Positions 3,069 through 46,640 of a stretch of DNA of 64,000 nucleotides are shown here, piece by piece. A program made the position numbers and the translations under genes. The notes below the pieces were generated by a model. The model searched no databases, was not told where the DNA came from, and saw only the letters and a list, made by a program, of their open reading frames with translations. Origin of the DNA: a virus (Duplodnaviria > Caudoviricetes); the IMG/VR virus record IMGVR_UViG_3300021255_005861, positions 1 to 64,000 of that record; one strand, 5' to 3'. The first letter of the stretch is position 1, and every line of letters starts with the position of its first letter.

Positions 3069-3305
3069 ATGACGAACTTCAATCATTGGCAGCAGACCGC
3101 TCCCGAGAAGTACCGGGCAGCGAAGCCCGAGGACCTTATCGTGGATCGCGGAGAGGTGGACGAGACGGAGGAGTTCCGCTACATAGCGCGGATAGACTGT
3201 TTCGAGTGCCCCTGTCATATCCAGTGCCATAGCAATCACGACATGTGGCGCGGGTGCTCGGAGATATTTCTAGAGTGGGCAAAGGAGGAAGTATGCTTAC
3301 AGTGA
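3069..3305 (+). CDS. hypothetical Cys-rich protein
   Basis: GGAGG RBS; CxxCPC motif. Confidence 0.6.
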   Translation: MTNFNHWQQTAPEKYRAAKPEDLIVDRGEVDETEEFRYIARIDCFECPCHIQCHSNHDMWRGCSEIFLEWAKEEVCLQ

Positions 3306-3459
3306 ACTACCCACCGCCTTTTGTAAAAGGCACGAACGGCGATGCCGTTGTTACGAAGTATGCCGAGCTCGTGGCTTTCCCGGACACCGACTTTGAGGTC
3401 TGTGCCGTCCACATCCCGATCCGCTTCTGCCCGTTTTGTGGCAGGCCGATGAAATAATT

Positions 3460-3546
3460 CTTATTTATTTCTTACAAGCGTATCCCGTCACGGAAAATTA
3501 GTTATATTTTTTTTGGTAAACCAAAACCACAGAGGATAGCACAATG
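3460..3546 (+). promoter_or_regulatory. phage promoter/leader motif copy 2
   Basis: CTTACA 3471-3476, N24, GTTATATT 3501-3508, GAGGATAGCACAATG 3532-3546. Confidence 0.8.
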
Positions 3547-18525: not shown

Positions 18526-19455
18526 ATGCCATTAGTACGATACAGCGTTTCAGATGAAATGTGGAACAATGAAGTCAACACGTTCACTGACATAACTAAC
18601 AGGATACTCAAAGTACATGGACAATATAAGGGTACCGCCCTGTTCAGCGATGACGGTTTGCCCCAGATCCCTATAACCAACAAGCAGTGGTGCCAGTGGA
18701 TACACTACGAACACGACGAGCAGACCTTTTGGTTCAGGCCCCGCACGAAAATAACACCGCTGGGATACCTCGCGAAATACACATTCGGCCCGCCAACGTC
18801 GGTTACCGTGGCCAAAGCTATCTGCTGGAACGCCGCCGTATATATCCATACGTTCAAGAAGCCTATAGGAACTGATTCCGTTCGGAAGGCAATGAAGCAG
18901 GCACTGCTGGATTCGAGTTGCCCCGACAAGCTGTTCGACGTCATAGCGGAATGCGCTAACCGCCTCTGCCATGTCTTGCTGGACGCCGTAAGCAGCGAAA
19001 CCGGGGAAATAAACCGCGGAGCCCTATATCTCCTACAAAACGACCTGCAAGAGCGTCTTAAACGTCGCAACTGCGTGAATAAGAGCCTGCGGCGTAATAT
19101 ATGCGAGCGGCTCGTGGTAGAGGGGATTGCGGCAAAGAAAACACGTACAGAGCAGCAGAACATGATCCGCCGTGCGGTCATAGCCGAACCTAGGCTAAAG
19201 AAGCAGGCCGTCCGGGCAATAGAGAGGATGCTTTCCTCCGACCCGAAACTCCTCAAGCTGAACGGTGGCGTATCCTTGCTCCTTCCATACACAAAAAGGG
19301 AGATATCCGATATAAGGAAGTGCTACAGCGCCAAGGCTGAAAAGTTCAAGATTTACGACCGGGTGGAGCTTATTAAGGACAAGTTGAGGCGTCGTGTATC
19401 TCTTACTAGCGCAGAGCGTGTATTTAAGTGCAGGCATAAGAAACTATTTCTTTGA
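18526..19455 (+). CDS. basic hypothetical protein, candidate replication initiator/origin-binding
   Basis: K/R-rich, lower GC, followed by ~1 kb non-coding repeat-rich DNA; the function is inferred. Confidence 0.55.
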   Translation: MPLVRYSVSDEMWNNEVNTFTDITNRILKVHGQYKGTALFSDDGLPQIPITNKQWCQWIHYEHDEQTFWFRPRTKITPLGYLAKYTFGPPTSVTVAKAICWNAAVYIHTFKKPIGTDSVRKAMKQALLDSSCPDKLFDVIAECANRLCHVLLDAVSSETGEINRGALYLLQNDLQERLKRRNCVNKSLRRNICERLVVEGIAAKKTRTEQQNMIRRAVIAEPRLKKQAVRAIERMLSSDPKLLKLNGGVSLLLPYTKREISDIRKCYSAKAEKFKIYDRVELIKDKLRRRVSLTSAERVFKCRHKKLFL

Positions 19456-19497
19456 TACACAACGAATTACGTAAGCAATTATTGCATACAAATGATA

Positions 19498-19562
19498 AAA
19501 ACGTTACACATGAGGCGTCACGCGGTAAATTAAAGTTACTGACGCTTGATGTGTAACGTTTT
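19498..19562. repeat. long inverted repeat
   Basis: AAAACGTTACACAT (19498-19511) / ATGTGTAACGTTTT (19549-19562) plus inner GCGTCA/TGACGC. Confidence 0.9.
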
Positions 19563-19710
19563 GATACTCGTTCCCCCTACCATATTCCCATATTCCGTAT
19601 GCGACGCTCCGCATCGCCATACGAGCATTTCCCTCTTTCGGGTAGTGCCTACGGCACATACCCATGTTCAATACCTCATTCGGAATATTCCGCGTATCGC
19701 GTATATGCGC

Positions 19711-19806
19711 GCCGTGCGAGCGAAGCGAGCATGGCCAACCATACGCCATCATCAATATCGGACATAACGTGTACCAGCCGTGCGAGCGAAGCGAGCATGG
19801 CCAACA
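19711..19806 (+). repeat. direct repeat GCCGTGCGAGCGAAGCGAGCATGGCCAAC x2
   Basis: copies at 19711 and 19777. Confidence 0.9.
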
Positions 19807-19917
19807 TTGGATACGTGGATAGGTATGGCTTCCGTAGCGCATACGCGCAGGGGGCGGGACTCCCCTCAAAGCGATGAATCCTGGTAGCGTTACCCGCCAT
19901 TTGTAAGCCAATATTTA

Positions 19918-20182
19918 CAATTAGCGGCGGGAAAGATGCCACCCTGAAGGGTGGCATATGAGAGCCGTCTAAAAAACATTAAAAGTACTTGCATTTTTGA
20001 AACCAATAAACTATATTAGTAATTGTCAGGCCGAAAGACATTAAATATGCGGGTACCTCCGGAACGGAGGAAACTTATGAGGGTGGACTGGCGGACCTAT
20101 ATATCCCGACCTAATTTGGAAAGGACAAGCCCGCTGGGTTGAAACCCGAAGCTGCCGCCCTTTAGGGCGGTCTGTAGTTCAC
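19918..20182 (+). mobile_element. non-autonomous IS200/IS605 mini-element (PATE-like) with promoter and probable omega-RNA
   Basis: left hairpin ATGCCACCCTGAAGGGTGGCAT; TTGCAT-N17-TATATT; right hairpin CCGCCCTTTAGGGCGG ending GTAGTTCAC, the same terminus as the tnpB element at 36604. Confidence 0.8.
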
Positions 20183-20455
20183 GAACATGCTCTTATCGGG
20201 TATGCTCCCCTCACAGCGGTGAATCGGGGTTGCGCCACCTAGCCTGCTCCGCCGCCCAATAAATCCGATTTGTTGTATGAGGCGTAACATTCATTTATGC
20301 GTGGATTGGACTCGCGGTGGATTCAGTTCATCCAAGCCCTGTTATTGCCGAGTATGGCGTAAAAACGTTAGGGGGATCGTATCAGTAGACGGGGTTGAGT
20401 TCTCCCGCTTTGCCCACATCCTATAAACAATCTATACACCTATAGGAATGCATTT

Positions 20456-21058
20456 ATGGCAAAGCACGTTAAGCCCTACATCTACTGGACCGCCGAGGAG
20501 GACACGATACTCCTACAAGGCGGCACACCCGAGAACCGCACCGAGAGCCAGTGCTACACCCGCGCGCGCAAGCTCGGCATACCCCGCTGCCGAAAGCCAA
20601 AGCCCCACTGGACTTCTGCCGAGACCGACCTGCTCCGCAAGGGCATACTCCCCGAGGGCAGATCCCCAACCGCCGCATACGGCTACTGCATCCTGCACGG
20701 CATACCGCCAGTCCCCACCTGGCGACCATACCTCAACCTCATCCCCGAGTGGTCCGAAACCGAACTCGAGGCCGTCCGCTCCGGGTGCGTCCCCCCAGGC
20801 CGTACCGCCCGACAGTGCACCTACGTGGCCACCAACGTCCTCCACGAGGACTTCGTGCCTGCAGACCTTCCCCCGCTATCCACCGAGGACGAGATAGCTA
20901 TACGGGCCATCCGCCTCGCCAACGACGGCTTCCCGATGTCAGCCCTCGCCAAGGCCTTCCACGTCACCCCGCGCGACCTCGCCAACATGGTTGCCAACCT
21001 GCGACGAGTCGTCCTCCGACGGGCCAAGGGCAAGACGAAAGCAAAATGTAACATTTAG
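20456..21058 (+). CDS. tandem Myb/SANT-like repeat protein with C-terminal HTH
   Basis: three W(T/S)xxExxxL..G..P.GR repeats. Confidence 0.75.
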   Translation: MAKHVKPYIYWTAEEDTILLQGGTPENRTESQCYTRARKLGIPRCRKPKPHWTSAETDLLRKGILPEGRSPTAAYGYCILHGIPPVPTWRPYLNLIPEWSETELEAVRSGCVPPGRTARQCTYVATNVLHEDFVPADLPPLSTEDEIAIRAIRLANDGFPMSALAKAFHVTPRDLANMVANLRRVVLRRAKGKTKAKCNI

Positions 21059-36603: not shown

Positions 36604-38061
36604 GTGAACTACCCACAGCCTAAAAGGCTGTGAGCTTCGAGTTTTCGCTTCGACGGAGCCACTTGTACTAACCCAGCAGAACTGGGAAGCATAGAGGAGG
36701 CTACCTCAGCGGAGGCGTGTTCCACGCACTCAGCACGTTTAGTCGTGCCAAACAAAAGTACATTACAGGCGGAATGCCAGTCTCTGGGCTTGGTGTATCC
36801 GCAATCACAATGATATGTGCGTTCATCCAACCCAATCTGATTGACTGCACCGCATACCGGACACATCTTGGTTGTCGGCAACCACTTTGACAGCACGAAT
36901 GCACGGTCTGCCTTGGCCAGCATCTTAATGCGCTGTTTAAGGGCACCCATGCAAGAGTGCTGGACTTGCTTGCCGAACCACGTCTGGTGCCAGTTATTGA
37001 TTTGCTCGTCCTGTATGTAGATGACATCGTAGTTGGACACAAGGTCGTGGTAGATTTTGTTGCAGATGTCCTTGCGGACATTCGCAACATGTTCATGCTC
37101 ACGGGCAAGCTGCTTCCTACAGTTCCATCGCCGCTTGGAGTCCTTCTCTTTCTTGTGCCTGTTTAGCATCTTGCTCAGGTACTTCAGGTACTCGGTTTCT
37201 TGCACTTTGCAATCGTAGGTCTTGTTGTCCGATGTCGTTATCGTGTTCTTAATGCCGAAGTCCAGTCCGACACTCTTGCGGGTGCGGTTCCTCGGTTCCT
37301 TCGGTAGCATTACGCTAATCTTTACGTAGTAGCCAGATGCCTTCCTGATTAGCTTGGCATCGGCTATCTCATATTCCTCAAACTCTATCTGATGCAACCC
37401 GTTCACCTTCAGCTTCCTGAATCCAGGAATTGTGATGTGGCTTGCATCCAGAATCTTCGTAAAACCCGTAATGATGGGGATGCAGTTCACTTCCGACTTG
37501 AACTTCAATGCACCAACCTTGATTCCTTTCTTCTTGGCTTTTGCAAGGTTGATGATGTCTGTCTTCTTCTGTGCCACGGTAGCTCTATGGAGCACTGATG
37601 GCAAAGTAATCGGTGAATTGACCGGTTTCTTGTCCTTGTCGTAGTGGACTACATCCTTGTGCTCGGTGTACTTGTAATCGAACATGCTGTTGTCTGGGTT
37701 ATCTTTCGACAAGGACAGCATGTCGTTGACTACCCACTTAGCTTCCTTGAAACATTGGGCCAGCTTCTCGAACACCGATTTCGGGTTGTGCCGTATAGAA
37801 ACTTTAAGCTCGAATACTCGGCATATCTGCGACTTACGACGGGCATGGGTCTCAGCCATGCTCGCCTTAATCCTTGCCTTCGTATCTTCGCTTCTTACCA
37901 GTTCCATATCAAGTTTCTTGACTATACTTATAGTTTAGACGGTTTACTCAATAAATATATCTATTTTTAACGGGTATGAAATGTTATTTATTTCTTACAT
38001 TTGCTATCGGCGGGTCTTACCCACGCCCTAAAGGGCGTGAGCTTGCGACCGCCTATTTGTC
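36604..38061 (-). mobile_element. IS200/IS605-family (IS1341-type, tnpB-only) insertion
   Basis: minus strand: TTTGA|CAAATAGG left end with hairpin CACGCCCTTTAGGGCGTG; right hairpin CACAGCCTTTTAGGCTGTG then GTAGTTCAC. Confidence 0.85.
36609..37907 (-). CDS. tnpB: TnpB RNA-guided endonuclease
   Basis: RuvC-I GLDFGIK, IQDE, CPVCG/CDCG zinc ribbon, RuvC-III RDWHSACN. Confidence 0.92.
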   Translation of the reverse strand: MELVRSEDTKARIKASMAETHARRKSQICRVFELKVSIRHNPKSVFEKLAQCFKEAKWVVNDMLSLSKDNPDNSMFDYKYTEHKDVVHYDKDKKPVNSPITLPSVLHRATVAQKKTDIINLAKAKKKGIKVGALKFKSEVNCIPIITGFTKILDASHITIPGFRKLKVNGLHQIEFEEYEIADAKLIRKASGYYVKISVMLPKEPRNRTRKSVGLDFGIKNTITTSDNKTYDCKVQETEYLKYLSKMLNRHKKEKDSKRRWNCRKQLAREHEHVANVRKDICNKIYHDLVSNYDVIYIQDEQINNWHQTWFGKQVQHSCMGALKQRIKMLAKADRAFVLSKWLPTTKMCPVCGAVNQIGLDERTYHCDCGYTKPRDWHSACNVLLFGTTKRAECVEHASAEVASSMLPSSAGLVQVAPSKRKLEAHSLLGCG

Positions 38062-45326: not shown

Positions 45327-46640
45327 ATGATTGTAAGGATGACACGACATACGCTAAAGTACGCCAATACGGGCAAGCAGGAGGCGGTAACTACGCTTCT
45401 TGCAGAATGGCGGCGTGTCATGCAGTTGTATTGTGATGAAATTTGGGATAACGGGTATAGGTGGAATGATGATAGCGGGTGGCACGAGTTCAAGCCCCGT
45501 GAGTTCAAGTATGAATTACCGAAATATTTGGACTATAAGTATTTCAACGTAGAGACTTGGCTATCTGCCCGAATGCTTAGTTCTTTAGTAACGCAATTAA
45601 GCGGTAAATTACGAGCGATATGCAGCAAGAATGAGGCTCGCCTACATGTATTTGACAAGGAAGCTGGTAAGGGAAACTACCTGGATAGGTTATGGGAGAA
45701 GATCGAAGCCCAGAACCCAACCAAGCCGGACCTTTCCGATGCAGGTATAGAGATATCCAGCAAGTGTGCAGAGTTCTATAGGACACCAGGGGGGGAGTTC
45801 TTTGGATTTCTCCGTATCAGGTCTACGGGATTACCCATATTCAATATTCCTATATGCAAGCATTCCCACTTGTCTAAATATGCCGAAGATATATCCTGGA
45901 AACAATGCAATGGATACCTTATCGACGAATATGGAGTACAATTACGATGGCAGAAGGAAGTACCTGAACGTACGGAAGGAATTAAGGTTGGTATAGACCA
46001 GGGATTGAAGACATGCTTGTCCTTATCGGACGGTCAAACTACAATGGATATGGTTGTACCTGCCCCTAGAAAAGGAGACCCAAATCGGACTATAATAAAA
46101 AACCTCGATACCTTGACGGACAAGATGTGCCGTAAGAAAAAAGGCTCAAAGGCATTCAGGCGGTGCCAAGCAGAACGTAAGAATTACATAGGATACGCAA
46201 TAAACCGCATAGACTTTAATGGCATAAAGGAAATCGGTTTAGAGAAGATAACGAATATCAACTACGGCAGGAATATTGCCAGAAAATTGAAACATTGGTC
46301 CAATCCGGAAATCGTTACTAGGCTCACACAGATTGCGGAGGAACTCGGAGTCCGAGTGAATCTACAATCTAACGCCTACAGATCACAACGATGCTCCGAG
46401 TGTGGACACGTACTCAAGGCTGCGAGGAAGGGAAAGTTATATGTCTGCCCTACTTGTGGGATGGCTATGGATGCGGACACGAATGCATCAAAGAACCATG
46501 CTATAGAACTACCCGATATACCTCGTTGCACTGTGTTGTCCAACCTAGCCAAGAGCGAGGGCTTCTACTGGATGCCTAATGGCTTGTTTAGGATGGATGG
46601 TTCGGAGTTTAGAGTCCCGGACACGTATAAAAGTCAATAG
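45327..46640 (+). CDS. tnpB: IS607-associated TnpB endonuclease
   Basis: GIDQGLK, GLEKI, SQRCSECG...CPTCG, DADTNASKN. Confidence 0.92.
   Translation: MIVRMTRHTLKYANTGKQEAVTTLLAEWRRVMQLYCDEIWDNGYRWNDDSGWHEFKPREFKYELPKYLDYKYFNVETWLSARMLSSLVTQLSGKLRAICSKNEARLHVFDKEAGKGNYLDRLWEKIEAQNPTKPDLSDAGIEISSKCAEFYRTPGGEFFGFLRIRSTGLPIFNIPICKHSHLSKYAEDISWKQCNGYLIDEYGVQLRWQKEVPERTEGIKVGIDQGLKTCLSLSDGQTTMDMVVPAPRKGDPNRTIIKNLDTLTDKMCRKKKGSKAFRRCQAERKNYIGYAINRIDFNGIKEIGLEKITNINYGRNIARKLKHWSNPEIVTRLTQIAEELGVRVNLQSNAYRSQRCSECGHVLKAARKGKLYVCPTCGMAMDADTNASKNHAIELPDIPRCTVLSNLAKSEGFYWMPNGLFRMDGSEFRVPDTYKSQ

Follow-up and report, generated by a model that had tools for sequence, protein, structure and literature searches.

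A short element in a gene-free spacer

The DNA analysed here, which we call the window, is 64,000 nucleotides long and makes up positions 1-64000 of a record (G000) of 185,666 bp from a sheep-rumen phage, ~85% complete by CheckV. Between an ORF that ends at 19455 and the next, which starts at 20456, lies a gap of 1001 nt without a called gene. Within this gap, on the plus strand, is a unit of 264 nt (19919-20182) that we interpret, from its sequence, as an internally deleted, protein-free IS200/IS605 element (hereafter the mini-element). The earlier note had placed here a unit of 265 bp starting CAA; the best register is 19919-20182, with TTAC left outside as flank.

All parts of the mini-element lie on the plus strand. 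Immediately 5' of it stands the target tetranucleotide TTAC (19915-19918), the left cleavage site C_L, assigned from four left flanks and from the empty alleles described below, and predicted to be the core of the TAM. The left end (LE, 19919-19970) shares 93% identity with that of a full-length tnpA+tnpB element. In it AAAG (19932-19935), the guide tetranucleotide, stands 17 nt from the cleavage site and is followed by the imperfect palindrome IP_L that makes up the left-end hairpin (19936-19957); an outer stem of 4 bp pairs 19925-19928 with 19964-19967. A promoter-like site, TTGCAT-N17-TATATT, occupies 19989-20017 (TTGCAT 19989-19994; TATATT 20012-20017). The remainder, 20026-20182, was assigned to a predicted omega-RNA scaffold and right end (RE) by its match to the covariance model R1. 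Here we place helix 1 (20056-20070), a weakened helix 2 (20104-20125), helix 3 (20133-20152), the right guide tetranucleotide G_R (GAAG, 20148-20151), which lies 5' of the right hairpin IP_R (20152-20174), and the terminus GTAGTTCAC (20174-20182), whose last tetranucleotide, TCAC (20179-20182), is the right cleavage site C_R. Homology among family members stops right after ...TTCAC, and the next 16 nt of right flank (20183-20198) are the predicted guide. A direct check of the sequence found the hairpins, promoter boxes and terminus at the positions that the earlier note had given them. The imperfect palindromes are subterminal at both ends, terminal inverted repeats are absent, and there is no target-site duplication, the left and right flanks being different.

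The longest ORFs inside the element are 38-39 aa and none is conserved. The one on the plus strand starts with a TTG that is CTG in sister copies, so that the earlier statement that the unit has no ORF holds in substance: its plus-strand start is missing in a sister copy.

The rest of the ~1-kb spacer (19456-19917 and 20183-20455) is mostly conserved in diverged relatives and has structure of its own: an exact 29-nt direct repeat at 19711 and 19777, a 26-nt inverted repeat at 19495-19565, and a unit of ~35 nt that occurs twice, at 19860 and 20205. We considered the last of these as a target duplication and rejected it, because both copies also flank the empty alleles; the 35-nt repeat is thus native spacer sequence. 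A role of the spacer as an origin or as a structured RNA is among the possibilities. In one near-identical strain (ENA scaffold_227; L071:1-1385), an IS607-type pair of resolvase and TnpB genes takes up the 5' portion of the gene before the spacer, whose product is 187 aa in that strain and 298 aa in the others.

Sister copies, strains and empty sites

The earlier note had pointed to empty sites and other copies as a way of checking its reading, and both were found. Pattern scans of IMG/VR and the JGI metagenomes recovered two more right-flank sites with the same architecture of LE, promoter, scaffold and RE, which brings the distinct left flanks to four; one of these two sites is accompanied by two different left flanks (L047/L076 and L074/L077). 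The mini copies are 84-90% identical to the window element overall, at 93-97% in the scaffold half and 70-88% in the LE/promoter half, and their left-end stems are retained while the loop varies. The copy at the other site (L075:293-527, minus strand) sits between tRNA-Phe and tRNA-Leu in an array of five tRNAs on a metagenome contig of 1.45 kb. It has a deleted left hairpin, but keeps the promoter and a scaffold that is 97% identical.

An exact look-up of the flanking proteins identified near-identical strains from other assemblies. The element is present in 4/4 examined, and thus no recent movement is seen at the locus. Inside the element these strains differ only at four left-end positions, among them a flip of the left-hairpin loop: at 19946-19947 the loop reads TGAA in some strains and TTCA in others, the two being reverse complements, while the stem is unchanged. 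Relatives of the flanking proteins in IMG/VR were not found, and empty sites were therefore reached via protein clusters; a blastn search of GenBank phages with the locus gave no match. Two diverged syntenic relatives (L137 and L136), with flanking proteins 95% and 61% identical, are without the element and read ...TTTAC exactly at the left junction. With the mini-element removed, the window aligns colinearly with these empty alleles across the junction. Our conclusion from the further copies and the empty alleles is that the element was once mobile.

Ends and target site

The ends of the element can be written as TTAC/AAAG on the left and GAAG/TCAC on the right. The insertion sequence IS608 inserts 3' of TTAC and has the left guide AAAG (PMC3201880), and in it each cleavage tetranucleotide is recognised by a guide tetranucleotide that lies 5' of the hairpin (PMC3201880), a layout that the mini-element follows. 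TTAC precedes the element in all four distinct left flanks of the mini copies. In sister families we see TGAC together with CAAG (the family of TnpB1, a TnpB encoded in the window) and TCAC together with GAAG; across the three pairs the first base of the guide thus covaries with the second base of the flank. Two loci, L051 and L021, are exceptions to this rule. The earlier note had contrasted a left flank ATTTA at the mini-element with TTTGA at the resident tnpB element; in the correct register that contrast becomes one of TTAC with TGAC.

Full-length relatives and the retained promoter

Using the mini-element as a query against 24 phage contigs that carry TnpB1 relatives, we found one stretch of ~1.83 kb, in another phage contig, whose LE, promoter and RE are 93%, 78% and 75% identical to those of the mini-element. 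Two divergent genes lie on it, one for a Y1_Tnp transposase of 148 aa (Pfam, E 7e-31) and one for a TnpB of 440 aa. More full-length copies with Y1 TnpA and TnpB, and with the same ends and promoter, are present on other rumen-phage contigs. The description of the unit as a protein-free IS605 mini-element is borne out by this homology of its ends and promoter to full-length tnpA+tnpB elements, by the further copies and by the empty sites. On one phage contig a mini copy (L047) is accompanied by a member of the parent family, intact and of full length with tnpA and tnpB; this has the flank TTTAC and a TnpB 89% identical to that of the first parent, so that the expected pairing of mini and autonomous element is seen in nature.

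Compared with the parent, the mini-element retains the left end, the promoter, about a dozen bases that resemble the 5' end of tnpB, and the last ~135-155 nt. We take this retained 3' part, from its sequence similarity, to be the omega-RNA scaffold overlapping the former 3' end of tnpB. The former tnpB frame is interrupted by a stop in the mini-element, and conservation there is thus not explicable by protein coding. The 3' ends of the parent-family elements are 72-77% identical to that of the mini-element; as the closest full-length RE found stands at 77%, the true parent was not found. A search of metagenomes for a closer parent with the helix-1 motif returned further mini copies only.

Bacterial relatives of the parent-type TnpB were also sought. 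A single-protein search of bacterial genome contigs gave no match, and an alignment search of the same kind of contigs gave 48 loci, at ≤55% identity, mostly in rumen Synergistaceae/Fretibacterium MAGs. Bacterial relatives of this TnpB clade (L085-L132, 41-49% identical) are multi-copy in such MAGs and share the terminus GTAGTTCAC; these copies are a possible clue to the host of the phage and to the source of a TnpB acting in trans.

In the full-length elements tnpB is directly preceded by TTGCAT and, 17 nt further on, a TA-rich -10 box, and the same -35 box, spacing and TA-rich -10 are present in all mini copies. On the strength of these shared boxes, we regard the promoter of the mini-element as that of the lost tnpB gene, retained after the deletion. 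A generic sigma-70 scan did not flag TTGCAT-N17-TATATT in the element. Against the sigma-70 consensus the -10 box TATATT matches at 5/6 positions and the -35 box TTGCAT at 3/6, which explains the silence of a simple scan. Thus of the earlier claim that the element has its own promoter, the boxes stand where they had been placed and are conserved, while the generic scan lends no help, and the call rests on conservation.

A predicted omega-RNA scaffold

The covariance model R1 was built from five full-length, tnpB-linked right ends only, and has 150 positions, 27 pairs and four hairpins. RNAalifold applied to mixed families gave a poor consensus, and the structure of the model is therefore a manual four-helix fold. 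The earlier claim of an omega-RNA scaffold fared well in this check: R1 matches 20026-20182 over its full length (102.3 bits, E 7.3e-29). Sister mini copies score 91-100 bits (E ~1e-25 to 1e-28), the TnpB1 right end (36604-36752) scores 32.4 bits (E 4.7e-08), and the 3' ends of tnpB at 30+ bacterial loci score 15-64 bits (E 3e-17 to 8e-03). In the alignment of all R1 matches (46 sequences), 89% of cells are paired against 69% in shuffles, double changes are found at 24/27 pairs, and helices 1 and 4 are 96-97% paired; it is important to note that this alignment was fitted to R1, which biases these figures towards the proposed structure. A stem CCTCYG/CRGAGG covaries between parents and minis. 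We predict from these model matches that 20026-20182 is an omega-RNA scaffold of the TnpB type.

Not all of the fold is in good order. Helices 1, 3 and 4 of the mini-element are intact, and in all mini copies helix 2 has lost 3/7 of its pairs, which may impair the scaffold. Folded for minimum free energy, the 179-nt RNA does not stand out from shuffled sequence in stability (z = -0.40). Searching the whole window against Rfam at the gathering score gave no family, and a permissive search of 19500-20600 gave only two chance-level matches at E up to 10.

Other scaffold-like sequences turned up in the record. Outside the window, G000:84697-84827 (plus strand; locus L133:498-628) is a second omega-RNA-like scaffold without a tnpB, which ends GGGTAGTTCAT and matches R1 at 25.4 bits (E 1e-7). 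A weaker look-alike near 97.8 kb scores 5.7 bits. A candidate third element at 3302-3311 of the window (minus strand), where GGTAGTTCAC follows a hairpin, was rejected: it reaches 3 bits against R1 (E 0.22) and lies inside a small plus-strand ORF.

The predicted guide

The guide of a TnpB RNA lies 3' of the scaffold and comes from flanking DNA. In every member of the present family homology ends right after TTCAC, which agrees with the earlier view that the guide is taken from the right flank; by this analysis the guide of the mini-element's RNA would be 20183-20198. This 16-nt sequence has five matches in IMG/VR, none beside TTAC and all in unrelated contexts, and on these two grounds we take the five as chance. 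Downstream of TTTAC, filled and empty alleles diverge strongly over the first 16 nt, so this guide would find no match in the empty-site relatives. The suggestion that the element is a domesticated guide cassette therefore gained no positive support, a TAM-adjacent target of the guide not having been found in IMG/VR.

TnpB genes of the phage

The earlier note had credited the phage with two TnpBs. Two is the number in the window; in the whole record eight ORFs have a TNB domain above the Pfam cut-off (at ~36.8, 46.3, 102.5, 112.4, 114.4, 118.9, 128.8 and 159.2 kb), an unusually high load of RNA-guided nucleases for one phage. A Y1 transposase was sought in the whole 186-kb record and none was found. 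The first TnpB of the window, TnpB1, is a protein of 432 aa (36609-37907, minus strand) with the Pfam domains OrfB_IS605 and TNB, and belongs to a tnpB-only element (36604-38060, minus strand) with the left flank TGAC and G_L CAAG. The second is of the IS607 type (45327-46640, plus strand) and is preceded by a serine resolvase. TnpB1 matches the solved ISDra2 TnpB chains with the D/E/D triad aligned and, as far as its sequence goes, looks catalytically intact.

Of the TnpB elements in the record, that of TnpB1 alone has the GAAG-hairpin-GTAGTTCAC right end of the mini-element, and the two are alignable over the last ~45 nt only. TnpB1 is 36% identical to the parent-type TnpB, which is the best value in the record, the 3' end of its element is 59% identical to that of the mini-element, and the flank of its family is consistently TGAC. 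For these three reasons the cognate partner of the mini-element is probably outside this record. The earlier suspicion that the cognate nuclease may be elsewhere is thus strengthened, both Y1 TnpA and a close TnpB being absent from the record.

Two further observations concern the TnpB1 family. At two loci (L018 and L019), a solo right-end hairpin ending GTAGTTCAA lies ~73 nt downstream of the RE of a full TnpB1-family element, and is possibly a remnant of tandem insertion. An AT-rich motif of 15 nt occurs 11 times in the record with at most one mismatch (window 3461, 7966, 37984, 43728 (-), 47707 (-), 50931 (-), and five more). At 10 of the 11 sites a CGTGGAAA-like box follows 10-15 nt on and then GTTATATT, upstream of genes, and the sites look like a phage-specific class of promoter. 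Elements of the TnpB1 family also have the upstream half of the motif in their LE, in antisense orientation; we considered the motif (in the TnpB1 LE and near 3461) as a transposon relic and discarded this idea on account of its 11 repeats across the phage.

Proposed origin and activity of the element

The reading we prefer, and to which we give a probability of roughly 0.85, is that the element is a non-autonomous, PATE-like deletion derivative of the IS608 type, for which TnpA and TnpB would be supplied in trans from outside the record. Its parent would be an IS608-type IS200/IS605 element with divergent Y1 tnpA and tnpB, and the derivative would have inserted 3' of TTAC in the 1-kb non-coding spacer of the phage lineage. 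As single-stranded DNA, the mini-element could then be excised and reinserted by a Y1 TnpA supplied in trans. A transcript of scaffold plus flank, started at the retained promoter, would yield an omega-RNA with the guide 20183-20198, and a TnpB of the same subfamily, with a TAM of the TTAC type, would use this RNA to cut the empty site, that is, TTAC joined to the right flank. Neither TnpA nor the cognate TnpB is in the 186-kb record, so the partner must come from elsewhere or the copy is stranded. Candidate sources are the unassembled ~15% of the phage, the host and a co-infecting phage; failing these, the copy would currently be stranded.

The last outcome deserves to be weighed as an explanation in itself. 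The element could be a real IS605 deletion derivative that is inert here, a stranded relic lying as neutral DNA in a non-coding spacer, and the absence of a Y1 TnpA or close TnpB from the record, the fixation of the element in 4/4 near-identical strains, the weakened helix 2 and a fold no stabler than shuffles are all in keeping with this. Yet the scaffold half has stayed at 93-97% identity, against 70-88% for the LE/promoter half, in an element that has lost its ORF, and the LE stems are retained while the loop varies, both of which speak against a relic. Furthermore, the record is ~85% complete and the host may have IS copies of its own, and rumen Synergistaceae MAGs contain multiple copies of TnpB relatives that share the right-end module. 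We therefore hold the relic to be possible, if doubtful. It is improbable, in our view, that the resident TnpB1 uses the RNA of the mini-element and so gains a second guide for the phage's own nuclease. TnpB1 looks catalytically intact, judging by its aligned triad, and of the elements in the record its own alone shares both the GAAG-hairpin-GTAGTTCAC module and a GAA-loop hairpin with the mini-element; but identity is 36% between TnpB1 and the parent-type TnpB and 59% between the scaffolds, and R1 gives the TnpB1 RE 32 bits against 102 for the mini-element. The TnpB1 family also follows TGAC where the mini-element follows TTAC, such that the expected TAM of TnpB1 differs from that of the mini-element. 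Use of this RNA in trans by any of the resident TnpBs thus appears unlikely.

A different kind of explanation would give the RNA a function of its own. As a domesticated guide-RNA gene, the element would be co-opted for a function of the phage, such as cutting competitors or regulating genes, independent of transposition. The sister copy L075, which has lost its left hairpin and kept the promoter and a scaffold 97% identical, is suggestive here, as is the second tnpB-less scaffold elsewhere in the genome. We nevertheless think this very improbable: the guide is mere insertion flank, its only 16-nt matches (five, in the viral collection) lack an adjacent TTAC and lie in unrelated context, and it does not fit the empty sites in L137 and L136. 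A bolder version, in which the cassette, as an orphan guide-RNA gene, drives among phages or is kept for its RNA alone, strikes us as a long shot. Were drive the case, RNA transcribed from the retained promoter would arm a TnpB from a host IS or a co-infecting phage, which would cut relatives without the mini-element at the empty site and thereby convert them; retention for the RNA alone is hinted at by L075, with its lost hairpin, kept promoter and 97% scaffold. On this reading the strong divergence that the empty-site relatives show beyond TTTAC would be escape of the target. We accordingly keep to the preferred reading, a PATE-like derivative served in trans, when comparing the element with known systems.

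The mini-element is a clear, fully readable example of an IS605 element shrunk to the minimum for TnpA and TnpB, namely two ends, one promoter and one scaffold, and it documents the circulation of mini-elements of this type among large rumen phages. A phage with a guide cassette and eight TnpB-like genes, and with the transposase absent, offers a natural test of the modularity of TnpB systems.

Comparison with known systems

Homology of its ends with an element that has a gene for a Y1 (HUH) TnpA ties the mini-element to the autonomous IS200/IS605 elements. Among these, it is best compared with IS608 of Helicobacter pylori, which carries tnpA and tnpB. Insertion at TTAC and AAAG 5' of the left hairpin are found in both, with AAAG 17 nt from the cleavage site in the mini-element and 19 nt in IS608. 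Both also have the right-end guide 5' and the cleavage tetranucleotide 3' of the hairpin, and in both target duplication is absent. The right guide tetranucleotide is GAAT in IS608 and GAAG in the mini-element. The right cleavage site is TCAC in the mini-element and TCAA in IS608 (PMC3201880). The mini-element is without both IS608-type genes, and its sequence similarity to IS608 itself is undetectable.

The RNA of the mini-element may be set beside that of the ISDra2 TnpB-omega-RNA complex (8BF8, 8EXA, 8H1J), whose RNA extends over the 3' end of tnpB as far as the transposon boundary; TnpB1 matches the chains of all three structures. In ISDra2 the guide is the adjoining flank, as we also predict for the mini-element. 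The scaffold of the mini-element is unrelated to that of ISDra2 at the level of sequence tested, and an Rfam family is absent. The TAM of ISDra2 is TTGAT, whereas that of the mini-element is predicted to be of the TTAC type.

The closest known parallel is with PATEs, which were first named in haloarchaea (PMC3119063). PATE-like minimal IS200/IS605 elements in Geobacillus stearothermophilus often encode omega-RNAs for which the TnpBs of other IS copies are needed in trans (Meers et al. 2023, PMC10055086). Like these (PMC10055086), the mini-element is protein-free, has an LE and an RE resembling those of IS605-family elements, and appears from its sequence to encode an omega-RNA; PATEs are mobilised by TnpA in trans, with TnpB encoded elsewhere (PMC10055086). 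Unlike the PATEs of G. stearothermophilus, the mini-element lies in the genome of a large rumen phage rather than in a bacterial chromosome, its retained tnpB promoter is directly readable, and the record holds neither TnpA nor cognate TnpB. Since PATEs that carry an omega-RNA for use in trans are known from published work, the present element, as a further member of that kind, brings an incremental gain. Particular to this phage are a cognate partner absent from the record, the empty-site alleles, and a second scaffold without a tnpB.
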